This document shows, piece by piece, positions 1,947 through 49,112 of a stretch of 64,000 nt of DNA. How positions within the stretch are numbered: the stretch's first letter is position 1; every line of letters begins with the position of its first letter. Position numbers and translations under genes: made by a program. The DNA lies in contig CAZNPX010000006.1 in NCBI GenBank assembly GCA_964575175.1, positions 28,578 through 92,577 on the forward strand, given 5' to 3'. This stretch comes from an uncultured Hyphomicrobiales bacterium (GTDB taxonomy: Bacteria > Pseudomonadota > Alphaproteobacteria > Rhizobiales > Xanthobacteraceae). The notes beneath the pieces were generated by a model, which saw only the letters and a program-made list of their open reading frames with translations, had not been told where the DNA came from and did no database searches.

Positions 1947-3794
1947 ATGTCCATGAGCCAGACGCAGCACTTCGACGACGCCGGGAAACTTGCCGGCGCA
2001 ATCGCCGCAAAAACGGGGCGCGAGATCACGCTCGCGCTCCCGCTTGGCCTCGGCAAGGCAAATACGGTGGCCAACGCGATCTATGCGCGCGCGGCGAGCG
2101 ACGCATCGCTGACGCTGAACATCTTCACCGCACTCACGCTGCAACGGCCGAGCGTTTCGGGGCTTGAAGCGCGCTTCATCGATCCGGTACTCGACCGGCT
2201 GTTCGGCGGCTACCCCGAGCTTGCCTATGCCCGCGCGCTCAAAAGCGGCACGCTGCCGCGCAACATCCATGTCAGCGAATTCTTCTTTCTTGCCGGGCGG
2301 TGGCTCGGCAGCGCGCTCGCGCAGCGGCATTACATTTCCGCCAACTACACCCACGCTTTCCGCTACGTGCTCGACCGCAACGTGAACGTGATCGCGCAGC
2401 TCGTGGCCAAACGCGTCGTTAACGGAGAGACCCGCTACAGCCTCTCCTGCAATACCGATCTCACGATCGATCTGCTGCAAGCCCGCCGCGAGGGTCGCGC
2501 GGATTTCGTTCTCGTCGCGGAAGTGAACTCCGAACTTCCTTTCATGCCGGGTGACGGCGACCTTCCCGAAAGCGCTTTCGACTTCGTCTATGAGAATCCA
2601 AAGACGGATTTCCCGCTGTTCGCGCCGCCGAAACAACCGGTGCCGCTTACGGCCTATGCCATCGGCCTGCATGCGGCGACGCTCGTGGAAGACGGAGGCA
2701 CGCTGCAAATCGGGATCGGCGCCGAGGGCGACGCGGCCGCGCATGCCCTGATCCTCCGGCAGAAGCAGAATGCAGCATTTCGCGAGACGATCTCCGCGCT
2801 CTCCCCGCAACTGCGGGGCGAATTCGGCGCCTTTCAGACCGGGCTCTACGGCGCGACGGAAATGTTCGTGGATTCCTTTCTCGACCTGATAGACGCGGGC
2901 GTCGTGAAGCGCGAGGTCGACGGCGTGCTCCTCCACGGCGGCTTCTTCCTGGGACCGAAGAACTTCTATCGGCGCCTGCGCGAGATGACGGATGCGGAGC
3001 GCGCGAAACTCCAGATGAAAGCCGTTTCCTACGTCAATCAGCTCTACGGCGACGAGGAAAGAAAACGCGCGGCGCGCGTCAAGGGGCGTTTCATCAACAA
3101 CGGGATGATGGCCACCCTGCTTGGCGCCGTCGTTTCGGACGGGCTTGAGAACGGCCTCGTCGTAAGCGGCGTCGGCGGCCAGTATAACTTCGTGGCGCAG
3201 GCTTTCGCGCTCGAAGGCGCTCGCTCCATCATCTGCGTGAATGCGACGCGCGGCTCCGGCGCAAAGACGCAATCCAATATCCGCTGGGCTTACGGGCACA
3301 CCACGATCCCGCGGCATCTGCGCGACGTCGTCGTCACCGAATATGGCATCGCGGACCTGCGCGGAAAATCCGACGAGGACGTGATCGCCGAAATGCTTTC
3401 GGTGACGGACTCGCGCTTTCAGGAAGAGTTGCTGCGCGAAGCCAAAAAGAACAACAAGATTTCCAAGGATTACGAAATCCCGGCGGCGTTCCGCGACAAT
3501 ACGCCCGAACGGATCGAGAAAGCGCTCGCACCCGCGAAAAAAAGCGGCCTGCTGCCCGACTTCCCGTTCGGCAGCGACTTCACCGAAACCGAAATCCAGC
3601 TCATCCCCGCGCTGCAACTACTGAAACAGAAATCCGCAGCGCCCTTGCAGCTTGTTCCGCTCGCGCTGCGCGGACTGTTCGCGCCGAAGAACGCGGAGCA
3701 CGACGCCGCCATCGAGCGAATGGGACTGAGCCAGGCAGCGGCGCTGAAGGACAAACTTTATCGGATGCTGCTGCGCGGGGCGTTGCGCGGCTAG
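1947..3794 (+). CDS. acetyl-CoA hydrolase/transferase family protein
   Basis: 615-aa ORF with a C-terminal GVGGQYNF-type motif characteristic of acetyl-CoA hydrolase/CoA-transferase C-terminal domains. Confidence 0.75.
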   Translation: MSMSQTQHFDDAGKLAGAIAAKTGREITLALPLGLGKANTVANAIYARAASDASLTLNIFTALTLQRPSVSGLEARFIDPVLDRLFGGYPELAYARALKSGTLPRNIHVSEFFFLAGRWLGSALAQRHYISANYTHAFRYVLDRNVNVIAQLVAKRVVNGETRYSLSCNTDLTIDLLQARREGRADFVLVAEVNSELPFMPGDGDLPESAFDFVYENPKTDFPLFAPPKQPVPLTAYAIGLHAATLVEDGGTLQIGIGAEGDAAAHALILRQKQNAAFRETISALSPQLRGEFGAFQTGLYGATEMFVDSFLDLIDAGVVKREVDGVLLHGGFFLGPKNFYRRLREMTDAERAKLQMKAVSYVNQLYGDEERKRAARVKGRFINNGMMATLLGAVVSDGLENGLVVSGVGGQYNFVAQAFALEGARSIICVNATRGSGAKTQSNIRWAYGHTTIPRHLRDVVVTEYGIADLRGKSDEDVIAEMLSVTDSRFQEELLREAKKNNKISKDYEIPAAFRDNTPERIEKALAPAKKSGLLPDFPFGSDFTETEIQLIPALQLLKQKSAAPLQLVPLALRGLFAPKNAEHDAAIERMGLSQAAALKDKLYRMLLRGALRG

Positions 3795-4622
3795 TTACTT
3801 GCAGAGCGTATGATAGCGCTCGATGCAGGTTTTGAGCACTTCCTCGCCGGGACGCTTCCACCAGTCGGCGGCGGAGAAGATTTCCACTTCCTGCGGACCG
3901 TGAAAGCCTGCGGCTTCGATCATGCGGCGGAAACCTTTGAAATCGATCACGCCGTCACCCATCATACCGCGGTCGAGCAGCATGTCTTTCGTCGGCACCA
4001 GCCAGTCGCAGATATGGTGCGCGAAAATGCGCTGCTCGCGGCCGGCGCGGGCGATCTGCTCCTTCAGCTCCGGATCCCACCACACATGATAGGTGTCGAT
4101 GGCAACGCCGACGTCGGGTCCGAGCTGGATCGCGATATCGAGCGCCTGTTTCAGCGTATTCACGCAGGCGCGGTCGGCGGCGTACATCGGATGCAGCGGC
4201 TCGATCGCGAGCGGCATTTTCGCGCCGCGCGCATGCGGAAGCACCGCCGCAATGCCTTCGGCGACCTGCGTGCGCGCGCCAACCATGTCCGTCGAGCCTT
4301 GCGGCACGCCCCCGACGACGAGCACAAGGCAATCGGCGCCGAGCGCCTGCGCTTCGTCGATCGCGCGCTTGTTGTCGTCGATCGCGGCCGTCCGCCCTTT
4401 TGCGTCACTTGCCGTGAACATGCCGCCGCGACAATAGCCGGTAACCTGCATGCCGTTGTCCCGGATGACCTTCGCGGACTCATGCAGGCCGAATGCGGCC
4501 ACCTGATCGCGCCAGGGATCGACGGCTGAAATACCGAGCTTCGCGCAGGCTTCGACGGCTTCGCCGAGATTCCACTGCTCACGCACGGTCGCGAGATTGA
4601 TCGAGAGGCCTTCCGCGTTCAT
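3795..4622 (-). CDS. sugar phosphate isomerase/epimerase (xylose-isomerase-like TIM barrel)
   Basis: 275-aa ORF with typical family layout (LSINLATVREQW..., IEPLHPMYAADRACVNTL..., IDTYHVWWDP). Last gene of the operon starting at operator A. Confidence 0.8.
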   Translation of the reverse strand: MNAEGLSINLATVREQWNLGEAVEACAKLGISAVDPWRDQVAAFGLHESAKVIRDNGMQVTGYCRGGMFTASDAKGRTAAIDDNKRAIDEAQALGADCLVLVVGGVPQGSTDMVGARTQVAEGIAAVLPHARGAKMPLAIEPLHPMYAADRACVNTLKQALDIAIQLGPDVGVAIDTYHVWWDPELKEQIARAGREQRIFAHHICDWLVPTKDMLLDRGMMGDGVIDFKGFRRMIEAAGFHGPQEVEIFSAADWWKRPGEEVLKTCIERYHTLCK

Positions 4623-4627
4623 TCCAA

Positions 4628-5800
4628 TCAGCCAATACCGTGAACGGCCAGCAGCTTCTTCATGCGCGAGGCGGCGAGCTCGGGGTCATGCAATACGCGC
4701 GCCTTGTCTGCGAGACGGAACAGCTCGGAAAGATGCTGCATGGAGCGCGCGCTCTCCTGCCCGCCGATCATCAGAAAGTGATCCTGCTGGCCGTTGAGCC
4801 AGGCGAGAAACACGATGCCGGTTTTGTAGAAGCGCGTCGGCGCCTTGAAGATGTGGCGCGAGAGCGGAACTGTCGGCTCGAGGATTCCGTGGAAACCTTG
4901 CAGGTCATTCTTCGCAAGGCGCGCAAGACCGGCGGATGCCGCCGGCGCGATGCCGTCGAAAATGCCGAGCAGCGCGTCGGAGTAGCCTTCGTCGTCGCCT
5001 GCGATCAGTTCGGCATAGTTGAAATCGTCGCCGGTGTACATGCGCACGCCCTTCGGCAGGCGGCGGCGCATCTCGATTTCCTTTTCCTTGGAGAGCAGCG
5101 AGATTTTCACCCCGTCCACTTTGGCGGCGTTGCGCGCGATGATGTCGAGACAGACATCCATCGCCGCATGGTGATCGTCCGAGCCCCAATAGCCCTTGAG
5201 CGCGGGATCGAACATTTCGCCGAGCCAATGCAGGATCACGGGCTCCTTCACCTGCGAAAGAATGCGGTCATAGACGCGCTTGTAGTCCTCGGGACCTTTG
5301 GCGGCGTAAGCAAGCGCGCGGCTCGCCATCACGATCAGGCGACCGCCGAGCTTTTCGATTACTTCGATCTGCTCTTCATAAGCGCGGATGACGTCGTCCA
5401 CCGAAACGTCCGGGCCGGGCGTGATGTGATCGGTGCCGCAGCCACAGGCGATCTTCACGCCCGAACGCGACTTCGCGGCTTCCAGCGCACGCCGCATCAA
5501 TTCCTGCGCGCCGCTCCAGTCGAGGCCCATGCCGCGCTGCGCAGTGTCCATGGCCTCGGCAACGCCAAGGCCGAGATCCCAGAGATAATGACGAAACGCG
5601 ATCGTGCGGTCCCAGTCGATGGCGGGATCGACCCACGGATCGTTGTCCGCGAGCGGATCGGCGACGACATGGGCGGCAGCAAACGCCACGCGATTGAAGG
5701 AGGCGATTTCCTCCTTCGAGGGAAACTGGATCGGCTCGCCGGTCGTGTAGGGCGAGAGTTTGCGATCAAGACCGGGCAGCGAAAGCGTCGCCATCGTCAC
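4628..5800 (-). CDS. DUF993 / dihydrodipicolinate-synthase-superfamily protein
   Basis: 390-aa ORF. GTG at 5800 overlaps the upstream stop (GTGA); alternative ATG at 5794. The N-terminal pattern (RVAFAAAHVVADPLADNDPW...IDWD.TIAFR..LW..GLGVAEAMDTAQRGMGLDW) matches what I recall of the DUF993 family. Confidence 0.7.
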   Translation of the reverse strand: MTMATLSLPGLDRKLSPYTTGEPIQFPSKEEIASFNRVAFAAAHVVADPLADNDPWVDPAIDWDRTIAFRHYLWDLGLGVAEAMDTAQRGMGLDWSGAQELMRRALEAAKSRSGVKIACGCGTDHITPGPDVSVDDVIRAYEEQIEVIEKLGGRLIVMASRALAYAAKGPEDYKRVYDRILSQVKEPVILHWLGEMFDPALKGYWGSDDHHAAMDVCLDIIARNAAKVDGVKISLLSKEKEIEMRRRLPKGVRMYTGDDFNYAELIAGDDEGYSDALLGIFDGIAPAASAGLARLAKNDLQGFHGILEPTVPLSRHIFKAPTRFYKTGIVFLAWLNGQQDHFLMIGGQESARSMQHLSELFRLADKARVLHDPELAASRMKKLLAVHGIG

Positions 5801-19671: not shown

Positions 19672-21144
19672 ATGTGGTCGGAAGTCACGCTGCCGCTATG
19701 GGTCGTCATCATCGCGGGGCTGCTGGCGGCGCTCGCATTCCTCGACCGGCTCCTGATCCCGAGCGTGCGCTGGGCGCTGCGGCGCCGGGCCAACCGGGCG
19801 ATCGGGGAGCTGAACACCCGGCTGCGGCTCCAGATCAAGCCCTTCAAGCTCACCAAGCGGCAGGTGCTCATGGACCGGCTGGTCTACGACCCCGAGGTGC
19901 TGCACGCGGTCGACGAATATGCGCGCGAGCAGAAGATCCCGCGCGAAGTGCTCATGGAAAAAGTGAAGCGCTATGCCGGCGAGATCGTGCCCTCGTTCTC
20001 GGCCTATGCCTATTTCCGGATCGGGACGCGGCTCGCGAAGCGGATTTCGGAAATGCTCTATCGCGTGCGTATCGGCATCCGCAACGAAGAGGCCTTCGCC
20101 AAGGTCGATCCGGACTCCTCGGTGGTCTTCGTCATCAATCACCGTTCCAACATGGACTACGTGCTCGTGACCTATGTCGCGGCGCAGTCTTCCGCGCTTT
20201 CTTATGCCGTCGGCGAATGGGCGCAGGTCTGGGGCCTGCGCAATCTCATCCGCTCCATGGGCGCCTATTTCATCCGCCGCGACTCGCGCGACGCGCTCTA
20301 CCGCAAGGTGCTTTCGCGCTACGTGCACATGGCGACCGCTTCCGGCGTGGTGCAGGCGATCTTTCCCGAAGGCGGCCTCTCCCGCGACGGCAAGCTGCGG
20401 CCGCCGAAATTCGGCCTGCTCAGCTACATGGTCGCCGCCTTCGATCCGAAGGGGCCGAAGGACGTCGTGTTCGTGCCGGTCGGCGTGAACTACGACCGCG
20501 TGCTCGAGGACCGCATGCTGACGGGCGCGGCCAGCACCGAGCCCGGCAAGAAGCCGGTCTTCGGCTTCAACCTGTTCGTGCTCCTGAAGCACTTCTTCCG
20601 CAGCATCGGGCTTGCGCTGCGCGGCAACTGGTATCGCTTCGGCTATACCTGCGTCAGTTTCGGCGAGCCGATCTCGCTCAAGCAATATGTCTCCGAGCAC
20701 AGGATCGATTTCCGCGACCTGCCGGAAAAGGAGCGCTTCGAGGCCGTCGAGCGGCTCGGCTCGACGCTGATGGATGCGGTCGGCAAGGTGGTGCCGGCGC
20801 TGCCGGTATCGCTGGTGGCGACCGCGCTCCTCGACGCGCATCCGGCGCCGCTTTCGCTGTTCGAGATCAAGAGCCGCGTGTCGCGGGTCATCGAGACGCT
20901 GGAAGCGTCGAAAGCCTATGTGCACATTCCGCGCTCGGATCGCGACTACGCCATCGAAGTCGGATTGCGGATGCTCAAGCTCCGCCGCATCGTGCACGAG
21001 AACGACGGCATCTATTCCGCCAATCCCGCCGATCTGCACATGCTGCGCTATTACGCGAACGCGATCGCGCATCTGCTGGCGGGGAGTGCTGCTTCGAACG
21101 CGCCCCTGCCCCACGCCGCCCTGCCGGCGGCGGCCGCCTCCTGA
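19672..21144 (+). CDS. PlsB-like glycerolipid acyltransferase
   Basis: 490-aa ORF with an N-terminal TM helix and the HX4D acyltransferase motif (VINHRSNMDYV). Confidence 0.75.
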   Translation: MWSEVTLPLWVVIIAGLLAALAFLDRLLIPSVRWALRRRANRAIGELNTRLRLQIKPFKLTKRQVLMDRLVYDPEVLHAVDEYAREQKIPREVLMEKVKRYAGEIVPSFSAYAYFRIGTRLAKRISEMLYRVRIGIRNEEAFAKVDPDSSVVFVINHRSNMDYVLVTYVAAQSSALSYAVGEWAQVWGLRNLIRSMGAYFIRRDSRDALYRKVLSRYVHMATASGVVQAIFPEGGLSRDGKLRPPKFGLLSYMVAAFDPKGPKDVVFVPVGVNYDRVLEDRMLTGAASTEPGKKPVFGFNLFVLLKHFFRSIGLALRGNWYRFGYTCVSFGEPISLKQYVSEHRIDFRDLPEKERFEAVERLGSTLMDAVGKVVPALPVSLVATALLDAHPAPLSLFEIKSRVSRVIETLEASKAYVHIPRSDRDYAIEVGLRMLKLRRIVHENDGIYSANPADLHMLRYYANAIAHLLAGSAASNAPLPHAALPAAAAS

Positions 21145-21224
21145 CATTATAAACAGGCGATAGATACGCGAATTCGCGCATACGCAGGGCGCAAAATACC
21201 CATGCGAAAAAGCGCTTGCCTTCT

Positions 21225-21248
21225 CGTTATATCCAGCTATACATAACG
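21225..21248. promoter_or_regulatory. ModE-type Mo-box 1: CGTTATAT-CCAGCTA-TACATAACG
   Basis: Exact match to the ModE operator consensus TATAT-N7-TAYAT, with CG-flanked inverted half-sites. Located in the AT-rich leader of the TonB receptor gene. Confidence 0.7.
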
Positions 21249-21412
21249 CATAACTCGATGGCGGGACCGGCTCTCTTCATCGAGTACTTACCCGGAGTGT
21301 CGCTTGGCGCGTGTCGTTGGCGGCTCCGGGTTATTTCCCGTTTCCCCCGTGCGAATCCCGGGACCAGTGCGACCAAATTGCGCGCCTGATCTGCGCTTTC
21401 CGCGCATGGACT

Positions 21413-21436
21413 CGTTATATCTAAAAATATATCACG
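21413..21436. promoter_or_regulatory. ModE-type Mo-box 2: CGTTATAT-CTAAAAA-TATATCACG
   Basis: Second exact TATAT-N7-TAYAT match, 107 bp upstream of the receptor ATG. Shares the 11-mer CTCGTTATATC with box 1. Confidence 0.7.
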
Positions 21437-21542
21437 ATACCATACCGGGCATTCGGGCTGGATGCCGGTGCGTGCGGCGTTGCCGTGCACGGAAAGACAA
21501 AACTTCGAAAAAAGCAGGACTTCACCTGCAAGCGGGGGCTCA

Positions 21543-23621
21543 ATGCGTTACACCTTAATCGCCGTGCTGCTGTCGACGACCGCCATCGCGAGCGCGCAGA
21601 CCGCCGCGGCACAAGGCCAGGTCTTCGATCTCGGCACCATCACCATCAGCGCGGGCGACCCCGACAGCACGGTTTCACCCACCGGCGTCGCGATCTCGAA
21701 CGAGCAGATCTATATCCGCAACGCGACCTCGCTGGATGCGGCGCTCGCCAATCTTCCGGGCGTCAACGCGACCATGGACAGCAACGGCCGCCGCAACGAG
21801 CGCGACATCTTCGTGCGCGGCTTCGGGCGCTGGCAGGTGCCGCTGACCATCGACGGCGTGCGCATCTACCTCCCCGCCGACAACCGGCTCGACTTCAACC
21901 GCTTCCCGACCGCGGACCTCTCCGAAATCCAGATCGAGAAGGGCTACGCCTCGGTGCTGAACGGCCCCGGCGGCATGGGCGGCTGGATCAACCTCGTCAC
22001 CCGCAAGCCGGTGAAGCCGCTCGAAGGCGAATTCATCGCGGGATTCAACGTCGACAACCGCGGCAGCTTCAACGGCTGGCAGAGCTACGGCCGCATCGGC
22101 ACCTTGCAGGAGCGCTTCTACCTGCAGGCGAGCTTCACCAGCAACGACCAGGATTTCTGGACGCTCTCGCGCAAGTACCGGCCCACGCCCACCAGCCTCG
22201 AGGACGGCAACCGGCGCATCAACTCGGATTCCGGAGACTGGCGGCTCAACCTGAAAGCCGGCTTCACTCCGAACGAGACCGACGAATACGTCTTCAATTA
22301 CGTCCGCCAGGAAGGCTTCAAGGGCGGGCCGCTGCACGTGCGCACCAACCCGCCGGTACCGCCGAACGGATTCTGGCGCTGGCCGCAATGGGACGTCCAG
22401 AACATCAGCTTCCTGTCGAACACCCGGATCGGCGAAGTCTCCTATGTGAAGACCAAGTTCTACTACAACACCTTCGACAACCTGCTGTCGGCCTTCGACA
22501 ACATCAACTACACGACGCAGAGCAACGCCGGGCGCTTCAACAGCTACTATAACGACAACGCCTATGGCGCGAGCGTCGAGGGCGGCACGCAGATCATCCC
22601 GCGCAACCTGCTGAAGGTCGCGGCGCACATCCGCTTCGACACGCACAAGGAATACAACGACAACCAGCCGACCAACCCGGGCGCGAGGAATATCGAGCCG
22701 GTGCAGGTGCAGCAGGAGCGCACCTGGTCGATCGCGGCGGAGAACACCTTCAACGTCAACAGCAACGTCGACTGGATCGTGGGCGTCAGCTACGACGAGA
22801 ACAAGCTGACCCGCGTCGAAGAATACAATTCCATCGTGGGCCTGTTCAGCTATCCCACCGGCGGCAGCGACGCCTTCAACTGGCAATCCATGCTGGTGTG
22901 GCGCTACACGCCGGCCGGACAGCTTCATGCCAGCATTTCCTCGCGCTCGCGCTTCCCGACGCTGTTCGAGCGCTTCAGCACGCGCTTCGGATCGGCGCTG
23001 CCGAACCCGGACCTCGGGCCGGAAAAGGCGATCAACTACGAGCTCGGCTGGAAATATCGCTTCAACCCCGAAACCCGGGTCGAGGCGGCGGTCTTCTACA
23101 GCGACGTGAAGGATTTCATCCAGTCGGTGCAACTGCCGACGCCGCCGAACCCGGCGAACACGACGCAGTTCCAGAACGTCGGCGACGGCCATTTCTACGG
23201 CTTCGAAATCTCCGGCCAGACGCGGCTGAACAGCCAGCTCACGCTGGGCGGCAACTACACCTTCATCCGCCGCGAGATCACCGATGTCGTAAACACCGCC
23301 TTCCGCCCGACCGGCGTGCCCACGCACAAGGCCTACGTCTATGTGAACTGGCAGGTGCTGCCGCAGCTCGAGATCATCCCGAGCCTCGAGATGGCGAGCG
23401 CACGCTGGACCGACGTGGTGCAGCAGCCCGCGGGCCCGGTCGGCATCTACAACCTGACCGGCTCCTATACGATGGCGAACCTCACGGCGCGGTACCGCAT
23501 CACGCAGAACCTCGACATCACCGCGGGCGTGCGCAACCTGCTCGACAAGCATTACGAGCTTGCGGACGGGCTGCCGGAGCCGGGACGGACCTTCTTCGCG
23601 AAGGCGCGGGCGACCTTCTAG
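21543..23621 (+). CDS. TonB-dependent outer-membrane receptor
   Basis: Start reset to ATG 21543 (signal peptide MRYTLIAVLLSTTAIASAQTAAAQ). Plug-domain motifs (IFVRGFG, IDGVRIY, IEKGYASVLNGPGGMGG). C-terminal ...TFFAKARATF beta-barrel terminus. Confidence 0.9.
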   Translation: MRYTLIAVLLSTTAIASAQTAAAQGQVFDLGTITISAGDPDSTVSPTGVAISNEQIYIRNATSLDAALANLPGVNATMDSNGRRNERDIFVRGFGRWQVPLTIDGVRIYLPADNRLDFNRFPTADLSEIQIEKGYASVLNGPGGMGGWINLVTRKPVKPLEGEFIAGFNVDNRGSFNGWQSYGRIGTLQERFYLQASFTSNDQDFWTLSRKYRPTPTSLEDGNRRINSDSGDWRLNLKAGFTPNETDEYVFNYVRQEGFKGGPLHVRTNPPVPPNGFWRWPQWDVQNISFLSNTRIGEVSYVKTKFYYNTFDNLLSAFDNINYTTQSNAGRFNSYYNDNAYGASVEGGTQIIPRNLLKVAAHIRFDTHKEYNDNQPTNPGARNIEPVQVQQERTWSIAAENTFNVNSNVDWIVGVSYDENKLTRVEEYNSIVGLFSYPTGGSDAFNWQSMLVWRYTPAGQLHASISSRSRFPTLFERFSTRFGSALPNPDLGPEKAINYELGWKYRFNPETRVEAAVFYSDVKDFIQSVQLPTPPNPANTTQFQNVGDGHFYGFEISGQTRLNSQLTLGGNYTFIRREITDVVNTAFRPTGVPTHKAYVYVNWQVLPQLEIIPSLEMASARWTDVVQQPAGPVGIYNLTGSYTMANLTARYRITQNLDITAGVRNLLDKHYELADGLPEPGRTFFAKARATF

Positions 23622-23627
23622 CCCGCG

Positions 23628-23999
23628 CTACTTGGAACGGCGCGCTGGAGCATTGCGCATGAGCAGATCCAGCGCGTCGCGGCTGCTTGCGGTCGCGCTT
23701 GCGGTCTTGGTTTCGATCTGGCGGTAGAGCTTCACGATCTCGCGGCCGGTATCGGTGAGCTGCGCGCCGCCGCCGTGGTCGCCGCCGGTTTCCGTCGAGA
23801 TGACCGGCTCGCGGAAGGTGTTGTTGAAAGCATCCACCAGCAGCCACGCCTTGCGGTACGACATGCCCATGCGCCGCGCGCCCGCGGAGATCGAGCCGGT
23901 TTCGGCGATCGCCTCCAAGAGCGCGACCTTGCCGGGGCCGACCCGCACGCCCGATTTCAGGTCGATGCGTATCGAGATGGTGTTTTCGCCTCTCGCCAT
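23628..23999 (-). CDS. ModE N-terminal-domain (winged-helix) regulator lacking Mop domains
   Basis: KVALLEAIAETGSISAGARRMGMSYRKAW...TGGDHGGGAQLTDTG aligns by eye with E. coli ModE RISLLKHIALSGSISQGAKDAGISYKSAW...TGGKGGGGAVLTRYG. The ORF ends after ~125 aa. ATG 23999 preferred over TTG 24023. Confidence 0.75.
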   Translation of the reverse strand: MARGENTISIRIDLKSGVRVGPGKVALLEAIAETGSISAGARRMGMSYRKAWLLVDAFNNTFREPVISTETGGDHGGGAQLTDTGREIVKLYRQIETKTASATASSRDALDLLMRNAPARRSK

Positions 24000-24038
24000 G
24001 GGATTCCGCCTGCCTGACTTCAACGCAACATTGTAACC

Positions 24039-25280
24039 TTACACGCCCTCGCCAAGCCAGCGCGCGGCGCCCTGCCCGGCGGCAACCCCGGTCGCGAAGG
24101 ATGCCTGCAAAAGATAGCCGCCGGTGGGCGCTTCCCAATCGAGCATTTCGCCAGCCGCGAACACGCCGGGAAGTTTCCTGAGCATGTAATTTCCGTCGAG
24201 TTCGCGCGGCACGATGCCGCCCGCGGTCGAGATCGCGTTTTCGATGGGCGCGATGCCGGTCAGCGTCAGCGGCAGGCGGTTGACGAGGGCGGCGAGCGCC
24301 GCGGCCGGAAGCTCCGCGAGCCGCGCGCCGTTCGCGGCCGCCCATTCCTGCAACAGCGCGATCGCGGCGGGCGAAAGATTAATCGCCTTGCGCAGGAAAT
24401 TCGAGAACGACTGCTTGCCGCGCGGCGCGGAAAGCCTTTCGGCCATCTGCGGCTCGGGAAGATCGGGCCGCAGGGCGACATGGAGGACGGCATTGCCGTT
24501 CGCCAGAATTTCCTCGCGCAATTTTCCCGACAGCGCATAGACCGCACCGCCCTCGAGGCCGTAGCGCGCGATCACCGCCTCGCCGCGCACCGTGGCATCG
24601 CCGCAGGAGAGCGCGATGCGCTTCAAGGGCGTGCCCGCGAAACGCGCGCGGAAGGTTTCCGACCAGCGGGTTTCGAAGCCGCAATTGGCGGGCCGCAGGG
24701 GCGAAAGCGCGATGCCGGCCGCGGCGAGAATGTTCGTCCAGGAGCCATCGGAGCCGAGCCGCGGCCAGCTCGCGCCGCCGAGCGCAAGCACGCTTGCGTC
24801 CGCGGTCACGCTCGCCCTTCCCTTCGGGGTGTCGAAGGCAAGCGCGCCGTCCGCGCTCCAGCCGAGCCAGCGGTGGCGGAACGCAAACGTCACGCCCATC
24901 GCGTCGAGCCGCCGCAGCCACGCGCGCAGCAAAGGCGACGCCTTGAACGCCTCGGGGAAAATGCGGCCGCTCGATCCCTCGAAGGTGTTCTGGCCGAGCG
25001 CCTCGCTCCATGCGCGCAGCGCCGCGGGCGGAAAATTTTCGATTGCCGGGCGCAACACGGCGGCGCGCGCGCCGTAGCGGCGCAGGAAATCCTCGAACGG
25101 CTCGCCGTGGGTGAGGTTGAGGCCGCCGCGCCCCGCGAGCAGAAACTTCCGTCCCGCGGAGGGCATGCGCTCATAGACGGTCACGCGGAATCCGGCTTTC
25201 GCGATTTCCTCGGCGGCGATCAGGCCGGCGGGACCGGCGCCGATCACGGCGGCTTCGCGCGCCACTTTGCTCGTATCCAT
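24039..25280 (-). CDS. HI0933/BaiN-like flavoprotein (TIGR03862-type)
   Basis: 413-aa ORF with N-terminus AAVIGAGPAGLIAAEE...RKFLLAGRGGLNLTH, typical of this flavoprotein family. Confidence 0.75.
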   Translation of the reverse strand: MDTSKVAREAAVIGAGPAGLIAAEEIAKAGFRVTVYERMPSAGRKFLLAGRGGLNLTHGEPFEDFLRRYGARAAVLRPAIENFPPAALRAWSEALGQNTFEGSSGRIFPEAFKASPLLRAWLRRLDAMGVTFAFRHRWLGWSADGALAFDTPKGRASVTADASVLALGGASWPRLGSDGSWTNILAAAGIALSPLRPANCGFETRWSETFRARFAGTPLKRIALSCGDATVRGEAVIARYGLEGGAVYALSGKLREEILANGNAVLHVALRPDLPEPQMAERLSAPRGKQSFSNFLRKAINLSPAAIALLQEWAAANGARLAELPAAALAALVNRLPLTLTGIAPIENAISTAGGIVPRELDGNYMLRKLPGVFAAGEMLDWEAPTGGYLLQASFATGVAAGQGAARWLGEGV

Positions 25281-25574: not shown

Positions 25575-26002
25575 CGGAACCGCTTGGCGAAACTCTTGAT
25601 AATTTCGCGCAACTCCGGCTCCTGCACCTGCATTGCCGCTTCCTCGGGCGTGAACCATTGCGTCTCGCGCTGGCCCTGCTCGGGCCAGTGCGGCAACTGC
25701 TGCTCGACCTCGAGCGCGAAGGTATCCACCGTGCAGTTCAGGATCGAGCCGTCGCCGCGCTTCTTGTCGTAGCGATAGGTGCCGATCGGCCGCTCGCCGA
25801 TCTTGCCGACGAGGCCCGCCTCCTCCATCGCCTCGAGGGCCGCGAGGTTGTGCGGCTCGACGCCGAGGATGGGCCAGCCCTTGGGGATGATCCAGCGCCG
25901 CGTCTCGCGCGAGGTGACGAGCATGATCTCGACGGCACCCTTCCGGGTCCGCCGGTAAGGAAGGGCGGCGTATTGCTGGGGGTTTTCCGATTTCCGGCTC
26001 AT
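25571..26002 (-). CDS. NUDIX hydrolase
   Basis: Last 143 codons of a spurious 1134-aa ORF. Nudix-box-like GWPILGVEPHNLAALEAMEEAGLVG. ATG 26002 overlaps the PiT stop (ATGA). Confidence 0.8.
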   Translation of the reverse strand: MSRKSENPQQYAALPYRRTRKGAVEIMLVTSRETRRWIIPKGWPILGVEPHNLAALEAMEEAGLVGKIGERPIGTYRYDKKRGDGSILNCTVDTFALEVEQQLPHWPEQGQRETQWFTPEEAAMQVQEPELREIIKSFAKRFR

Positions 26003-27003
26003 GAGAACAGGCCGCTCGCCAGATAGAACAGCGAGGCGATGACGGCGGCCGCGGGCAGCGTGATGACCCAGGCCACGACGATGTTGCTGGCCACGTTCCA
26101 GCGCACGGCGGACACCTTCCGCGCCGCGCCGACGCCGATGATGGCGCCGGTGATGGTGTGGGTGGTCGAAACCGGAATGCCCATCCAGGTCGCGGCAAAC
26201 AGCGTGATCGCGCCGCCGGTCTCCGCGCAGCAGCCCTGCATCGGCGTGAGCCGCGTGATCTTCGAGCCCATCGTATGCACGATGCGCCAGCCGCCCATCA
26301 GCGTGCCCAGCCCCATGAAGAACTGGCAACTGATGACGACCCAGAACGGCACGTAAAACTCGCTGCCGAGATGCCCGGTCGAGAACAAAAGCACGGCGAT
26401 GATGCCCATGGTCTTCTGGGCGTCGTTGCCGCCGTGGCCCAGCGAATAGAGCGACGCCGAGATGAATTGCAGGCCGCGGAACGTGCTGTCCACGGAGCGC
26501 GGATTCGCGCGCACGAAAAGCCACGACACCAGCAGCACGAGCATCAGGGCGAGGAAGAAGCCGGTCATCGGCGACAGCACGATCGCGGCGGTGGTCTTGA
26601 GCAACCCGTACCAGACGATGGAGGCGCTGCCGGCCTTGGTCACGGCGGCGCCGAGCAGGCCGCCGATCAGCGCGTGCGAACTGCTCGACGGAATCCCGGC
26701 CCACCACGTAATCACGTTCCAGCTGATCGCGCCCATCAGCGCGCCGAAGATCACGCGCGCATCGACGATGCCGGCGGAGACGATGCCGGTGCCGATGGTG
26801 TTCGCGACGTGCAGGCCGAAGAACAGGAACGCGATGAAATTGAAGAAGGCCGCCCACATCACCGCGTATTTCGGGCGCAGCACGCGGGTCGAAACGATGG
26901 TCGCGATCGAATTCGCGGCATCGTGCAGCCCGTTCAGGAAATCGAACAGGAGCGCAATCGCGATCAGTGCGATCAGGATTTGCAGGCTGATGGATGCGTC
27001 CAT
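25999..27003 (-). CDS. inorganic phosphate transporter, PiT family
   Basis: 334-aa polytopic ORF with the duplicated PiT signature (GLHDAANSIAT / GHGGNDAQKTMG). Confidence 0.9.
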   Translation of the reverse strand: MDASISLQILIALIAIALLFDFLNGLHDAANSIATIVSTRVLRPKYAVMWAAFFNFIAFLFFGLHVANTIGTGIVSAGIVDARVIFGALMGAISWNVITWWAGIPSSSSHALIGGLLGAAVTKAGSASIVWYGLLKTTAAIVLSPMTGFFLALMLVLLVSWLFVRANPRSVDSTFRGLQFISASLYSLGHGGNDAQKTMGIIAVLLFSTGHLGSEFYVPFWVVISCQFFMGLGTLMGGWRIVHTMGSKITRLTPMQGCCAETGGAITLFAATWMGIPVSTTHTITGAIIGVGAARKVSAVRWNVASNIVVAWVITLPAAAVIASLFYLASGLFS

Positions 27004-27018
27004 TGCGGTACGCCGTGC

Positions 27019-27663
27019 TTACAGGTGATCGGTTACGAGCGCGCTGATTTCGTTCGCGACGTCTTCGAAACGGTCCACCACCTTTTCCAGATGATCGTAA
27101 ATTTCGCCGCCGATGATGAAGTTCATCGCGTTGCCGTTGCGGTTCGCGAGGAACAGCGCCTTGCGCCCGGCTTCGTGCAAATGGTCGGACTGCTCCTCGA
27201 TCTCGATGATCTGCTCGGTGATCCGGTGCAGCGCGGCGCTGTTCTTCCCGATATTGGCGAGCAGCGGCATCGCCTGCTGCACGAGCCTTGCCGCGACCGG
27301 CGCCATCGCCGCCATCTCCCGCATCTGCGGATCGAAATTCCTGACCTCGTAGAGCGCGATGAGCTTCGCGGTCTTGTTCATCTGGTCGATGGAATCGTCC
27401 ATCGAGCCGACGAGGTCCTGGATGTCGGTGCGGTCGAACGGGGTGATGAAGGTGCGACGCACCGCGGTCAGCACCTGCCGCGTGATCTCGTCGGCTTCGG
27501 CTTCGCGGTCGAAGATCACCTTGCAGTAATGCTCGATCCTGTCGCCGCCCTGAAACAGCCCCTCGAGCGCTTCGGCGCCGGCAAGGACAACATCGGCGTG
27601 ACGGGAAAAGAACTCGAAAAAGCGCTCTTCCTTCGGCATCAGTGCCTGAAACCAGCCGAGCAT
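27019..27663 (-). CDS. DUF47 (PhoU-like) phosphate transport regulator-related protein
   Basis: 214-aa helical ORF immediately upstream of PiT, the usual DUF47-PiT pairing. Confidence 0.8.
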   Translation of the reverse strand: MLGWFQALMPKEERFFEFFSRHADVVLAGAEALEGLFQGGDRIEHYCKVIFDREAEADEITRQVLTAVRRTFITPFDRTDIQDLVGSMDDSIDQMNKTAKLIALYEVRNFDPQMREMAAMAPVAARLVQQAMPLLANIGKNSAALHRITEQIIEIEEQSDHLHEAGRKALFLANRNGNAMNFIIGGEIYDHLEKVVDRFEDVANEISALVTDHL

Positions 27664-42486: not shown

Positions 42487-45400
42487 TCAGGCACCCGGGA
42501 GCCCCTCCACGGCAGCCTCGATCGCCCGCGCAACCACCGTCACGGTGAGTTCCGTCTTGTAGTGATTGTGCTCGAGCGGCAGCGCGCCATAGACCGAGGC
42601 CGCCGCGGCCGCCTCGATGGTCTGCGGCGTCAGCGCGGCGCCGCGCAGGATTTTCTCGCTGTGAACCGCCCGCGCCGGCGTCGGCGCCACGCCGCCGAGC
42701 ACGATGGCGGCGTCCGTCAGTTTCTGCTTCGAGCCCATGAGCCGCACGGCGGCGGAGGCTTCCGCGAAATCGCCGCGCCAGCGGGCATATTTTTCATAAT
42801 GGAAAGACGCGCCGGCGCGCGGCTTCGGAATCTCGATCGCGGTAATCAGTTCGGCCGGTTCGAGCACCGTTTCGCCCGCCCATACATAAAGCTGCTCGAC
42901 GGGAATGCGCCGCGCGCGCTCCGGCCCCGCGGTAACGACCTGGGCATCGAGGCAGGCGAGCATCGGCGCGAGATCCGACACGCAAGGGGCCGCGCACCTG
43001 CCCGCGCCCATGATGGAATGGTGACGATTGTCTCCGAGCACCGCGTAACAGGGACAGGCCGGGCCGGAGAAGCGATAACACGGCGTGGCGGAACGAAAGA
43101 ACCAGCAGCGCTTCTCCTGACAGAGATCGCCGGCCACCGTCGCGCGGTTGCGGATCTGCTGGGTCGCGATCAGCGCAGCACCTTTCGCAAGGCCCAGAAA
43201 ATTCTTTTCGATCAACGCATGCTCGATGAGCGTGCTCACGGTGACGGCCGCGCCGACCTTCAGAAATTCGCCGGCCAGCACGATTTCCTTCACGCCCGGC
43301 GTGTTGCCATAGGCAATCAGTTTCGGCGGCCCATAGACACCCTGTCGGATGCCCGGCAGCAGATCGGTGCCGCCGCCCAGGAACCGGCTTCCTTCGCTGG
43401 CTGATGCCTGCGCCACCGCATCCGCGACCGTGCCGGCGACGACGGTTTCGAACGCGCGCACGCGCGGCCGCGAGCGGCCCAGATACTTGCCCGCCTTCTT
43501 CATCACCGGCGCCATCACGGGATAGAGTTTGCGGACCGCTGCGATCTCGGCGTTGAGCGGCCGCAGATAAGGCTTCAGCGAACGCGCGGGCCTGCCGTTC
43601 TGCGCGATCGCCGCGAGCACCGCCTCGGGCGTGATCGGCAACTTGTGAAAACGAACGCCCACCGCGTCGGCGACCGCATTGGCGACCGCCGCCACGGTCG
43701 CATTGATCGTGGGCTCGCCCGCGGCCTTGGCGCCGAAAGGACCCAGCGCGTCCGCCGTTTCGATGAAGTCGATCGAGATGTTCGGCGTGTCCGCGATCCG
43801 CGGCACACGATAATTGATGAGCGAGCGGTTCACCGGCCGGCCGTTCTCGAACACGACATCCTCGCTGAGCGCCATGCCGACGCCCTGCATGATGCCGCCG
43901 TAGGTCTGCCCTTCGAGCGCGGTCGGATTGATGACGCGGCCGACATCCTGCGCCGAGGCGATGTTGAGAATGGTGACGTGGCCGGTGCCGGGATCGACTT
44001 CGACTTCCACCGCCTGCGCGCCGAAGGCATAAGCCGCCGCATAGTTTCCGTATCCGGTCACCGGATCGGGCCGCTCGAGCCCGATCTCGTAGCGCCCCTC
44101 GACGCGCAGCGTGCCGAAACGCTGCCCGGCCTGGGACAGCGTCAGCTCGCGCCGCTCGTCGTGGGGATGTGAGAAGGTGCCGGCGTCATAGCCGATCTCT
44201 TCGGCGGCGATGTTCCACTCTTCCGCGATGCGCTGCCGCAAGCGCGAAACCAGCTCCTTGCCGGCGGCAATCGCGGCGTTTCCCGTGACGAAGGTGACGC
44301 GCGACGCCGCGCTGCCGAGATCGTCGGGCCCGAGCTCCGTGTCCATGTGAACGACGGAGATTCCTTCCATCGACACGCCGAGCGTCTCCGCCACGAGTTG
44401 CGCGAGAATGGTGTTCTGCCAGGTCCCGGCGTCGGCGGTCTGCGTGAAGATCTGCATTCGCCCGTCGGGTTGCAGCTCGACCGCGATGTTGGAGAAATTT
44501 CCTTCGGCATAAAGCACGCTGCCGCTCGGATGGATCATCGAGGCGATGCCGATGCCGCGATAGGGCGGCAGCTTACCTTTCTTGTCGGCCCAGCCGATCC
44601 GTTCCGCCGCCTTGCGCAGGCAATCGCTGAGGCCGCAGCTCGTGATCTTCCAGCCGAGCGGGGTCAGGTCGCCGGGCTGGTTGGCGATCCGCAAGCGATA
44701 CTCCACCGGATCCAGCTTCAGCCGCGCGGCGATTTCATCGACCTGGGTTTCGATCGCCCAGATGATTCCGGGAGCGCCCATTCCGCGATAGGAGCCGCCC
44801 GGCAACTTGTTCGTATAGACGAGTTTCGCGCGCACGCCTGCCGCGCCCACGCGATAGAGATTGGCGGTGCGCTGCCGCACGGCGGAAACGTAAACGGGGC
44901 CCATGTGCGTATAGGCGCCGTTATCGACAATCGCATCGACCGTGCGCGCGAGAATGTTGCCTTTCGCATCGACCGCGGTGCGCAGCGACATGGATTTCGC
45001 GTGGTCGCTCTTGCCGGCGATGTATTCCTCGTCCCGCGACAGCACGACCTTGACCGGCCTTCCGGTCCGCTTCGAAAGCAGTGCTGCAATCGCGATCTGC
45101 TCAGGCGCCTGCGACTTGCCGCCGAAGCCGCCGCCGATGGCGACGGGGCGGACGACGATCCTGCCGGGCTCCAGATCGAGCACGCGCGCAAGCTCCTTGC
45201 GCACGAAGAACGGCGCCTGGGTGCCGCACCACACTTCCAGCTTGCCGCTTGCCGCATCGAATGACGCGACCGCCGCATTGGTTTCCATGCAGACCGGCCA
45301 GACGACGCCATGCTCGAAGCGGCCCTCGACGATCAAGGCCGCATCCTTGAGTCCCTTCTCGACATCGCCGAGCGATATATCGACGAGCTGGGCGACATTC

Positions 45401-45864
45401 GCGGCGAGCTTGTCGCGGCGCGGGTGAATGTCGGGCGCATTAGGCGCAAGCGCGGCCTCCACCGTGACCGCGGCCCGCTGTTCCCTGTAGCGGATCGCGA
45501 CCGCGCGCACGCCGAGCCAGGCGGCCTGCGCCGATTCCGCCGCGACGGCCGCGACTTCTTCGCCGTAGAAGCGCACCTTGTCGGTCGCCATCGCGTGGCG
45601 GTCGGAATAGGCCGGGCCGTAATTCACGTAGCGCGAGCCGCTGAAATCCGATGCAACGACGGCATCGACCACGCCCGCCACGGCGAGCGCCGGCTTCAGA
45701 TCGATATCGAGAATGTCGGCGGCGGCGTGCGGGCTGCGCAGCACCGCGCAATAGAGCATCCCCGGGAGCACGATGTCGTGCGTGAACTGCGCGGCGCCGG
45801 TGACTTTCGTCCGCGCCTCGATCTGCGGCACGCGCTGCCCGATGGTGCCGAGCGGGCCGCTCAT
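42487..45864 (-). CDS. xanthine-dehydrogenase-family molybdopterin subunit fused to an FAD-binding (CoxM/HcrB-like) subunit with a Cys-rich insertion
   Basis: Start reset to ATG 45864 (ATGA overlap with the upstream 2Fe-2S gene). Residues ~1-750 form the Mo subunit (GGGFGGK, ...GAKAAGEPT...). A ~50-aa linker follows, then the FAD domain (FLGGGTDLLPGIRQG). No stop codon between the two parts. Confidence 0.85.
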   Translation of the reverse strand: MSGPLGTIGQRVPQIEARTKVTGAAQFTHDIVLPGMLYCAVLRSPHAAADILDIDLKPALAVAGVVDAVVASDFSGSRYVNYGPAYSDRHAMATDKVRFYGEEVAAVAAESAQAAWLGVRAVAIRYREQRAAVTVEAALAPNAPDIHPRRDKLAANVAQLVDISLGDVEKGLKDAALIVEGRFEHGVVWPVCMETNAAVASFDAASGKLEVWCGTQAPFFVRKELARVLDLEPGRIVVRPVAIGGGFGGKSQAPEQIAIAALLSKRTGRPVKVVLSRDEEYIAGKSDHAKSMSLRTAVDAKGNILARTVDAIVDNGAYTHMGPVYVSAVRQRTANLYRVGAAGVRAKLVYTNKLPGGSYRGMGAPGIIWAIETQVDEIAARLKLDPVEYRLRIANQPGDLTPLGWKITSCGLSDCLRKAAERIGWADKKGKLPPYRGIGIASMIHPSGSVLYAEGNFSNIAVELQPDGRMQIFTQTADAGTWQNTILAQLVAETLGVSMEGISVVHMDTELGPDDLGSAASRVTFVTGNAAIAAGKELVSRLRQRIAEEWNIAAEEIGYDAGTFSHPHDERRELTLSQAGQRFGTLRVEGRYEIGLERPDPVTGYGNYAAAYAFGAQAVEVEVDPGTGHVTILNIASAQDVGRVINPTALEGQTYGGIMQGVGMALSEDVVFENGRPVNRSLINYRVPRIADTPNISIDFIETADALGPFGAKAAGEPTINATVAAVANAVADAVGVRFHKLPITPEAVLAAIAQNGRPARSLKPYLRPLNAEIAAVRKLYPVMAPVMKKAGKYLGRSRPRVRAFETVVAGTVADAVAQASASEGSRFLGGGTDLLPGIRQGVYGPPKLIAYGNTPGVKEIVLAGEFLKVGAAVTVSTLIEHALIEKNFLGLAKGAALIATQQIRNRATVAGDLCQEKRCWFFRSATPCYRFSGPACPCYAVLGDNRHHSIMGAGRCAAPCVSDLAPMLACLDAQVVTAGPERARRIPVEQLYVWAGETVLEPAELITAIEIPKPRAGASFHYEKYARWRGDFAEASAAVRLMGSKQKLTDAAIVLGGVAPTPARAVHSEKILRGAALTPQTIEAAAAASVYGALPLEHNHYKTELTVTVVARAIEAAVEGLPGA

Positions 45865-46373
45865 GCTGCTTCGGCCACGGCGGCGCGAACCGCTTTCAAT
45901 ATCTGCGCGTAGCCGGTGCAGCGGCAGATGTTGCCCTGCAAGGCGTGCCGAATCGCCTCGTCGCTGGGATCGCGGCGCTTCGCAAGCAGCGCATAGGCGG
46001 ACATGATCATGCCGCTGGTGCAGAAGCCGCACTGAAATCCGCCGTGCTCGATGAACGCGCGCTGAAGCGCATGAAGCGCGCCGTTGCGCTCCAGCCCCTC
46101 GATGGTCTGCACGGAGGAGCCGGACACCGTGCAGGCGAGCGTGACGCAGGAGCAGACCGCGGCATCGTCCAGCATGACGGTGCAGGCGCCGCACTCGCCG
46201 CTGTTGCAGCCCACCTTGGTGCCGCGCAACTGCAAGCGGTCGCGCAGGATGTCGGCCAGCGATTCATGCTGCCCGACGACCAGTTCCCGGTCGGCGCCAT
46301 TCACCGACAGGCGAATTGCGGTCGATCCGCTTTCGCTTTCCGGTTGGCTCGGATCGGGCAACACGGCGCTCAT
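45861..46373 (-). CDS. (2Fe-2S)-binding small subunit (module B)
   Basis: Last 170 codons of a spurious 715-aa ORF. Motifs CNSGECGACTV and CGFCTSGM...CRCTGY. ATGA overlaps at both ends. Confidence 0.9.
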   Translation of the reverse strand: MSAVLPDPSQPESESGSTAIRLSVNGADRELVVGQHESLADILRDRLQLRGTKVGCNSGECGACTVMLDDAAVCSCVTLACTVSGSSVQTIEGLERNGALHALQRAFIEHGGFQCGFCTSGMIMSAYALLAKRRDPSDEAIRHALQGNICRCTGYAQILKAVRAAVAEAA

Positions 46374-49107: not shown

Positions 49108-49112
49108 CACCG

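Follow-up and report, generated by a model that had tools for sequence, protein, structure and literature searches.

Conserved Mo-boxes in front of a TonB-dependent receptor and a structured RNA module in a Xanthobacteraceae genome

The locus and its two Mo-boxes

We analyzed a stretch of 64,000 nucleotides (64 kb; hereafter the window, whose positions are used throughout) from an uncultured Hyphomicrobiales bacterium of the Xanthobacteraceae (GenBank assembly GCA_964575175.1, contig CAZNPX010000006.1, positions 28,578 to 92,577 of the forward strand). Here the gene of a TonB-dependent outer-membrane receptor is preceded by two Mo-boxes, the operators of the molybdenum (Mo) regulator ModE, and converges on the gene of a short ModE protein, ModE(S). 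The gene map of the window is based on the G+C content of third codon positions (GC3), and its proteins were annotated by NCBIfam and Pfam scans. The features around the boxes are the following:

19672-21144, plus strand: PlsB-like acyltransferase gene, upstream of both boxes (gene map, NCBIfam/Pfam)
21215-21220, plus strand: -35-like element CTTGCC of a putative small-RNA promoter, P1, whose -10-like partner CTATAC (21237-21242) lies 16 nt downstream, inside box 1
21225-21248, no strand: Mo-box 1, CGTTATAT-CCAGCTA-TACATAACG, predicted operator over the spacer and -10 of P1
21248-21343, plus strand: structured RNA module of ~95 nt (hairpin 1, hairpin 2, U-rich tail), candidate ModE-repressed small RNA
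21413-21436, no strand: Mo-box 2, CGTTATAT-CTAAAAA-TATATCACG, predicted operator of the receptor promoter
21437-21542, plus strand: receptor 5' leader, including conserved hairpins and, at 21534-21538, the Shine-Dalgarno sequence GGGGG
21543-23621, plus strand: TonB-dependent outer-membrane receptor, 692 amino acids (aa), Pfam Plug and TonB_dep_Rec_b-barrel domains
23628-23999, minus strand: short ModE, ModE(S), 123 aa, TIGR00637, convergent with the receptor
24039-25280, minus strand: TIGR03862/HI0933-like flavoprotein (496.8 bits), directly upstream of modE(S) on the same strand

Read directly, box 1 is CGTTATATCCAGCTATACATAACG and box 2 is CGTTATATCTAAAAATATATCACG; CT precedes both, which extends their common sequence to the 11-mer CTCGTTATATC. 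Both fit the ModE operator pattern CGnTATAT-N8-ATATAnCG, alias TATAT-N7-TAYAT. The latter matches twice in the 64 kb and not once in any of 100 dinucleotide-preserving shuffles, the full 24-mer consensus recovers the boxes at zero and one mismatch (0.01 matches expected in the window), and a weight-matrix scan of the window finds no third Mo-box. The operator of Escherichia coli K-12 modA, read from the fetched K-12 mod region, is CGTTATATTGTCGCCTACATAACG and lies 20 nt ahead of modA; the half-sites of box 1, CGTTATAT and TACATAACG, are identical to both of its half-sites. These comparisons uphold a preliminary description of this DNA, which had placed two 24-bp boxes here with exact TATAT-N7-TAYAT matches and a common 11-mer and had likened the half-sites of box 1 to those of the modA operator. 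The distance of 107 bp that it gave between box 2 (which ends at 21436) and the receptor ATG (21543) is likewise correct, this start codon being backed by a signal-peptide-like N-terminus, the GGGGG Shine-Dalgarno sequence and alignments with orthologs from residue 1. By sequence, both boxes are genuine ModE-type operators, and operator and regulator are ordinary members of the ModE/ModE(S) family. Each box also contains a -10-like hexamer, with a -35-like element of the TTG/TGG type 15-17 nt upstream (for box 2, TATATC at 21428-21433 and TGGACT at 21407-21412). The same description had called the region in front of the receptor unusually AT-rich, which is overstated: this 398-bp leader has a GC content of 54.5%, against 64.5% for the window, but the remaining intergenic gaps of the window range from 50.6 to 66%, a range that includes the leader value, so that the leader is ordinary intergenic DNA.

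ModE(S) matches the TIGR00637 ModE repressor domain over residues 27-116 of its 131-aa open reading frame (ORF), with 93.7 bits; neither NCBIfam nor Pfam finds a Mop/TOBE domain in it. It is 40% identical to residues 19-111 of E. coli ModE, and its homologs, which form a large family, measure 109-141 aa among the 120 listed, with the exception of one of 213 aa. The TIGR03862 flavoprotein is its probable operon partner, the gene pair being repeated in L003, L146, L150-L157, L161, and L163 (L-numbers designate related loci fetched for comparison with the window). The locus resembles the E. coli ModE/modA operator in its half-sites (those of box 1), in the predicted promoter-proximal position of the operator before a putative uptake gene, and in the DNA-binding domain; it differs in that ModE(S) lacks the molybdate-binding di-Mop domain and that its targets would be a receptor and a small RNA instead of modABC. 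ModE(S) of Agrobacterium tumefaciens and Sinorhizobium meliloti reportedly represses modABC in dependence on the status of the Mo cofactor (Moco) (Hoffmann et al. 2016, Mol Microbiol), and that work is not known to describe a receptor or small-RNA target for it. The protein of the window shares with these regulators a length of ~120 aa, a DNA-binding domain alone, a gene directly after a co-oriented upstream gene, and an alphaproteobacterial host that uses Mo-boxes. ModE(S) is presumably the protein that binds both boxes.

Conservation of the Mo-box upstream of the receptor family

The receptor begins with MRYTLIAVLLSTTAIASAQ followed by DLGTITISA, which, judged by eye, are signal-peptide-like and TonB-box-like, and comprises the plug and beta-barrel domains PF07715 and PF00593. 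It reaches no NCBIfam family at its curated cut-off; its best matches, all below cut-off, are haem and siderophore receptor subfamilies, and public records name the family just 'TonB-dependent receptor'. At least 560 relatives exist in species-representative genomes, and the best 80 of these loci were kept for comparison. Their receptors are 46-79% identical over the full length, and the sequences place the receptor of the window in a tight orthologous family, which is also found in Nitrobacter and Afipia carboxidovorans. The nearest relatives locate the bacterium in or close to the Xanthobacteraceae.

The strict literature pattern occurs directly upstream of the receptor in 16 loci from Alphaproteobacteria, Gammaproteobacteria, and Verrucomicrobia. 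With a 28-nt palindromic matrix applied in a leave-one-out manner (each locus scored without its own sites; cut-off ≥18 bits), 50 of 77 loci have a site in the 480 bp before the receptor (background rate, 0.015 per 480 bp); these equivalents of box 2 lie 50-350 bp from the receptor. Because this matrix had been trained on the same upstream regions, the test was redone with the E. coli modA consensus alone; at up to three mismatches, 44 of 76 loci have a site in the 450 bp upstream, against 0.77 expected (78-fold enriched). By group, the box is present in 25/26 Alphaproteobacteria, 16/21 Gammaproteobacteria, 1/2 Betaproteobacteria, and 2/2 Verrucomicrobia. Two boxes, at ~-290 and ~-103, recur within the clade of the window (L001-L003 and L150-type loci), and L146 has a single box before its receptor, at -112. 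The L146 ortholog (oriented 2838-4934) aligns over residues 1-692 with 76% identity, yet is split into two ORFs (2838-4256 and 4275-4934), which implies either an in-frame stop or an assembly error. Elsewhere, the receptor gene of Nitrobacter (L010-L014, L043) and flhA diverge from a common intergenic region with two boxes, which stand ~52 bp apart and have no RNA module between them. Iron control of the receptor was considered and rejected: a scan of the window for Fur and Irr (ICE) boxes at up to three mismatches came up empty, RirA boxes not having been searched for. An alignment of the receptor leader (21437-21542) with L001-L003 shows conserved blocks, and hairpins are conserved in these loci as well, such as GGCAUUCGGGCUGGAUGCC and GCAGG...CCUGC at 21514-21529, just ahead of the Shine-Dalgarno sequence; they may add post-transcriptional control. 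A cyclic di-AMP riboswitch (55.6 bits) lies directly 3' of the receptor ortholog in an Acidobacteriota metagenome-assembled genome (L024:8105-8318) and is the sole RNA match among the boxless loci.

To compare gene neighborhoods, all ORFs of the loci were clustered and the clusters annotated. A short ModE gene is the neighbor of the receptor in 21 loci, both alpha- and gammaproteobacterial, mostly in convergent orientation and 5-80 bp past the receptor stop codon; a ModA-type binding protein adjoins it in 12 loci, and ATP-binding cassette (ABC) permeases, maybe ModB, in 6. About 30 more strong Mo-boxes lie elsewhere in the orthologous loci, for example before modA, and others precede FecCD/Peripla_BP_2/ABC transporters (Mesorhizobium, Aquamicrobium) and DUF2478 and DUF364/DUF4213 genes (L007). 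Of all statements of this analysis, the one with the best support, from site conservation and gene associations combined, is that the receptor very probably belongs to the ModE regulon. The preliminary description had concluded that the receptor is molybdate-regulated, and ModE control is indeed well supported by the upstream site conserved in several phyla and by the repeated adjacency to modE(S) and modABC.

Several of these neighbors deserve mention in their own right. HI_1472, which we take to be MolA, the molybdate/tungstate-binding protein of a type II importer, is the second-best solved relative of the Peripla_BP_2 protein (E = 1.8e-25). The FecCD/Peripla_BP_2 systems beside the receptor in Mesorhizobium and others are akin to MolABC, the type II molybdate/tungstate importer, but are absent from the window. 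At L007:8743-10454, a 36-bit Mo-box is flanked by two divergent genes, one for a DUF2478 protein and one for a DUF364/DUF4213 'putative heavy-metal chelation' protein, with a short modE and a FecCD-type transporter adjoining. An SBP_bac_6 binding protein of 430-450 aa, distantly PhnS2-like, is encoded upstream of the receptor, in an apparent operon with it and with Mo-box pairs in front (L018:4550-5957, L071:3200-4618), and another Mo-box pair precedes a DUF2325 protein gene at L057:11040-12475; from their sites, both proteins look like further members of the ModE regulon.

Other partners are redox proteins and small secreted proteins. In Nitrobacter and several Gammaproteobacteria, a secreted protein of ~180 aa and then an MbnH/MauG-like di-haem enzyme are encoded after or before the receptor (L016:6766-8314, L041:8254-9799, L017:8273-9917; also L020, L058, L062, L074). 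The ~180-aa protein (cluster 4) has two invariant Cys and invariant W, D, and K residues and often its own Mo-box; no Pfam or NCBIfam model matches it. The set of orthologous receptor, small periplasmic protein, and MbnH/MauG-like enzyme in these bacteria recalls MbnT-MbnP-MbnH, reportedly a copper module, with the differences that the partners are absent from the window, that the small protein is not MbnP by hidden Markov model, and that the enzyme matches TIGR04039 at 268 bits, under the NCBIfam cut-off. A protein of ~180 aa also follows the receptor in Acidobacteriota/Verrucomicrobia (L030:5837-6376, L023, L036, L077, L079), with a weak match (E = 2e-13) to Oxidored_molyb, a molybdopterin-binding domain; kinship between the two ~180-aa proteins (clusters 4 and 12) was rejected, hhalign giving it a probability of 0.3%. 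Finally, a DHOR (PF06537) di-haem oxidoreductase adjoins the receptor in Xanthomonadales-like and Rhodospirillaceae loci (L018:8088-9401, L047:4523-5833, L058, L062, L071, L078); a DHOR-like gene reportedly also neighbors icmP of Pseudomonas aeruginosa, which encodes the outer-membrane partner of secreted ModA.

The RNA module at box 1

In an alignment of the leader with its counterparts from the three closest loci, the inter-box stretch of ~100 nt is better conserved than the flanking intergenic DNA. It contains hairpin 1 (21253-21285, with a C/U-rich stretch inside), hairpin 2 (21290-21331), and a U-rich tail (21332-21343); the plus strand of this module folds at -39.8 kcal/mol (z = -2.2), and the minus strand is unremarkable. 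Two candidates were rejected. For the Moco riboswitch or another known RNA, no Rfam 15 model reaches its gathering threshold in the window, and 21140-21560 gives chance-level matches only (E ≥ 1.4). For a small peptide, the ATG-started 43-codon ORF between the boxes exists in the window alone, its ATG not being conserved.

The module recurs in other loci. A metagenome pattern scan with CCGGAGNNNNGCTTGGCGCGTG gave 66 matches, 65 of them chance occurrences in coding DNA and the only genuine copy that of L146, in which the Mo-box, the two hairpins, and a T-tract follow the receptor and reach up to the stop codon of modE(S), which is convergent with them. Five copies served to build a covariance model, which matches 20 loci besides the window; the copies amount to 10 distinct sequences in all. 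The DNA around close homologs of ModE(S) and the receptor furnished ten more loci with the gene order of the window. In L158-L160 and L163, which have neither the receptor nor box 2, the modE(S) and acyltransferase genes converge directly, and the 150-175 nt left between them still contain every part of the module, from CTTGC and the Mo-box (CGTTATATCCTACTATACATAACG or CGTTATGTCCTGATATACATAACG) to the two hairpins and the U-tail. The covariance model also found a divergent copy in L007, from Pseudorhodoplanes, again with CTTGCC and with a Mo-box of its own; the nearest upstream ORF found there lies on the opposite strand, so that the module would need its own promoter at this locus.

Over the 10 distinct sequences, 95.9% of cells are standard pairs, against 33-53% when the partners are slid, and 9 of the 27 pairs change on both sides (18 cells). 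The sequence of hairpin 1 is replaced and yet still pairs, and the apical GCUUGGCGCGUG of hairpin 2 (12 nt) is invariant. Of the 11 listed copies, 10 have CTTGC at a distance of 4-6 nt ahead of the box and one, L146, has ATTTGC; 16-17 nt downstream of CTTGC, the right half-site of the box supplies a -10-like element of the CTATAC type; these P1 elements resemble the alphaproteobacterial sigma-70 consensus CTTGAC-N17-CTATAT. The Mo-box is kept in every copy of the module, including the receptor-less loci, and CTTGC, Mo-box, and hairpins follow each other in constant order and at near-constant spacing in three gene contexts.

Two side observations concern these loci. The presence or absence of the receptor is a polymorphism: a cassette of ~2.3 kb with box 2, leader, and receptor (corresponding to 21344-23627 of the window) is cleanly gone in L158-L160 and L163, leaving the terminator-like end of the RNA module next to the modE(S) stop codon, and in L163 the 3' end of the RNA module overlaps modE(S) by 13 nt. 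At L007:5340-5450, ~170 nt upstream of the module, lies a third Mo-box (CAATATATTTATCTGGATACATCG, 26.8 bits) with TTGACT before it and a GC-rich hairpin and seven T after it, which may drive a second, unrelated small transcript in tandem.

It could be argued that the two boxes form one two-site operator of the receptor, cooperative or looping over 188 bp, and that the RNA between them is part of the receptor mRNA, as its 5' leader or as an attenuator. In favor of this, relatives in the clade of the window keep both boxes in this arrangement, Nitrobacter-type loci have two boxes as well, and ModE(S) of A. tumefaciens is said to bind two Mo-boxes at modA. However, box 1 and the hairpins stand intact in four loci without receptor and box 2 (L158-L160, L163), and in L146 the module stands 3' of a receptor that has a single box. 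These loci disfavor both the operator and the leader version; moreover, hairpin 2 with its U-tail resembles a terminator and lies ahead of box 2, which has -10- and -35-like elements of its own. We therefore hold this explanation improbable, and the preliminary description of two boxes jointly in front of the receptor does not stand as far as their pairing is concerned: box 1 belongs to a separate unit, whose conserved RNA module is kept where the receptor is absent.

The module might instead yield no functional RNA, hairpin 2 being a (possibly bidirectional) terminator of the adjoining genes and box 1 an orphan or decoy site or a roadblock to read-through from the acyltransferase gene. In keeping with this, the module mostly lies just 3' of the acyltransferase gene and in the same orientation, hairpin 2 abuts or overlaps the convergent modE(S) stop codon in L146 and L163, the U-tail is weak, and target searches were empty. 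Against it, an invariant apical 12-mer above covarying basal stems would be rare for a terminator, hairpin 1 is structurally conserved too despite its replaced sequence, and the fixed order and near-fixed spacing of CTTGC, Mo-box, and hairpins hold in three gene contexts. We give this explanation little credence, and find it fairly likely, from the pattern of conservation, that box 1 drives a discrete and independent small RNA.

Predicted mechanism, cargo, and relation to known systems

We consider it likely that box 1 and box 2 serve different transcription units, that a ModE operator overlaps a promoter-like element in each, and that ModE(S) reads both. When Mo (or Moco) is sufficient, ModE(S) would sit on both boxes, cover the -10-like hexamers, and block both promoters; upon Mo starvation, it would come off and release them. 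Repression is suggested as the direction of control by the overlap of box and -10-like hexamer. Unit 2 would consist of box 2, the leader of ~106 nt, and the receptor, which would be made under starvation, import an Mo species over the outer membrane with TonB energy, and hand it to periplasmic binding proteins of the ModA or MolA type. Unit 1 would consist of box 1 and the two-hairpin RNA of ~95 nt, ending in the terminator-like hairpin and U-rich tail; this RNA, if expressed, would respond to the same starvation signal and act in trans.

A number of observations weigh against this proposal or parts of it. A generic sigma-70 scan finds no promoter in 21100-24100, and E. coli ModE activates some promoters as well. 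The Acidobacteriota orthologs of the receptor are mostly boxless (box in 1/18), and boxless orthologous loci have no Moco riboswitch either. The RNA module is seen only in a narrow Xanthobacteraceae-like clade and Pseudorhodoplanes, its pair counts come from alignments fitted to the covariance model, and the U-tail after hairpin 2, UUAUUUCC, is short and interrupted. RNAduplex, run on the translation-initiation regions of the window, gave only meaningless full-length duplexes, and no complement to the invariant 12-mer exists in the rest of the window. As to the receptor, its AlphaFold2 model (pLDDT 75, pTM 0.79) has as its closest solved folds generic TonB transporters (PfeA, PirA, OprC) with TM scores of ~0.72, OprC reaching 0.73-0.75, and 15-18% identity; PDB sequence matches are no better than 1e-15, and the invariant residues include no evident Cys/His/Met metal site. 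The attempt to read the substrate from structure was given up, sequence and fold searches of the PDB returning generic TonB transporters only. Lastly, the evidence fits Mo, tungsten (W), or some other resource wanted in Mo starvation alike.

With these points in mind, we slightly favor the view that the receptor imports an Mo or W species by TonB. No chelator-biosynthesis genes lie in the window, none were noticed in the 80 loci, and the periplasmic partners are oxyanion-binding, which makes us lean to free molybdate or tungstate as the cargo. The preliminary description had proposed uptake of an Mo or W chelate, a molybdophore, and we regard a chelate (e.g., catecholate-Mo) as a rather unlikely cargo. 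TonB transporters mostly carry chelates, catecholate molybdophores are documented in Azotobacter, and catecholate receptors are among the best structural neighbors, including PfeA, whose structure was solved with protochelin; in some loci, moreover, FecCD/Peripla_BP_2 transporters and DUF364/DUF4213 proteins are tied to the receptor under Mo-boxes. Yet this structural likeness is generic, with OprC equally near, and ZnuD and OprC are TonB transporters for unchelated metals. The commonest transporter neighbor is ModA/ModB, the Peripla_BP_2 protein is related to HI_1472, and the DUF364/DUF4213 protein of L007 is the sole chelation-type neighbor, so that specific support for a molybdophore is lacking.

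A further alternative, to which we assign a low probability, is that Mo starvation induces the receptor for another cargo, such as tungstate or vanadate, or an iron or other metal complex for Mo-independent back-up enzymes. ModE regulons in other bacteria include genes of alternative enzymes, and the best sub-threshold NCBIfam matches of the receptor are, as mentioned, haem and siderophore receptors. Three TonB-dependent siderophore receptors of Azotobacter vinelandii (Avin_30860, Avin_39890, Avin_47130) are expressed only without Mo and vanadium, via VnfA1 (PMC9542535). These VnfA1-dependent receptors are the nearest precedent, though an indirect one: they are TonB-dependent and induced by lack of Mo, as is predicted for the receptor of the window, but they are controlled through an activator, with no Mo-box on the promoter, are annotated as siderophore receptors, and stand in operons with ABC components. 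A cargo other than Mo is, however, at odds with the fact that the receptor is repeatedly linked to modA/modB and MolA-like genes, many of which have a Mo-box themselves, and with the lack of Fur/Irr boxes in the window. The family also occurs in Nitrobacter and A. carboxidovorans, non-diazotrophs whose key enzymes require Mo.

The remainder of the window has no Mo-box in the weight-matrix scan. Farther off, it encodes hemN, fixK/fixLJ, and F420 genes (NCBIfam/Pfam scans), in addition to two groups of genes:

25999-27663: PhoU_div (DUF47) and PHO4/PiT-family transporter pair (NCBIfam/Pfam scans)
42487-49970: two xanthine-dehydrogenase-family molybdoenzymes, one fused to its own flavin adenine dinucleotide (FAD) subunit, and a separate FAD subunit

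The PhoU_div/PHO4 pair is syntenic with the flavoprotein-modE(S) locus also in L081, L150, L161, and L163, but since it has no Mo-box, this association may be synteny only. The molybdoenzymes bear on the earlier statement that the segment encodes at least three Mo enzymes, of which the two of the xanthine dehydrogenase family were verified; none has a Mo-box.

Precedents exist for each part of the proposal with other metals. Several non-iron TonB transporters are under their own metalloregulators (ZnuD under Zur for zinc, OprC/NosA for copper, FrpB4 under NikR for nickel). The receptor of the window would share with them the 22-strand barrel and plug, a promoter with the operator of the cognate metal sensor, and induction upon starvation, its regulation being predicted; it differs in its low identity to them (15-18%), in the lack of an evident Cys/His/Met metal site, and in its presumed oxyanion cargo, and we know of no characterized TonB transporter for an oxyanion. 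Similarly, RyhB and PrrF are small RNAs repressed by Fur, and HrrF of Haemophilus is reportedly another metalloregulator-repressed small RNA. The candidate RNA of the window would resemble them in having its own promoter under a metal-sensor operator and a hairpin-plus-U end and in being made on starvation, with the difference that its regulator would be ModE. A metal-sensor operator on a TonB receptor is thus known for zinc, copper, and nickel, and a sensor-repressed small RNA for iron; the Mo case was not found described. The full-text literature yielded no Mo-box- or ModE-controlled TonB receptor, and neither it nor Rfam yielded an Mo-responsive small RNA, with the limits that 'ModE' collides with 'mode' and that subscription journals and regulon databases of the RegPrecise type were outside reach; a transcriptome paper on N. 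winogradskyi contained nothing relevant. A computational prediction of the receptor's Mo-box or of the small RNA may possibly exist already.

The passage of molybdate over the outer membrane at the pico- to nanomolar levels of many soils and fresh waters is hardly discussed: the reviews consulted give only ModABC, ModE, and the Moco riboswitch, and the outer-membrane step is usually taken as passive diffusion through porins. The receptor family, with its at least 560 members, a ModE operator in several phyla, and frequent proximity to modE/modABC, is a concrete candidate for this missing step, and among its carriers are nitrite oxidizers and CO oxidizers, organisms that rely on Mo enzymes in their central metabolism. 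The module at box 1 hints at an unrecognized response to Mo starvation; if true, ModE would act post-transcriptionally as well, through a small RNA that would be the first Mo-responsive riboregulator. We put forward only tentatively, as a possibility with the odds still against it, the full proposal that many Gram-negative bacteria have a ModE-controlled, TonB-energized route for Mo over the outer membrane and that one alphaproteobacterial clade has, in addition, a ModE-controlled 'Mo-sparing' small RNA, which would be the Mo counterpart of Fur/RyhB.

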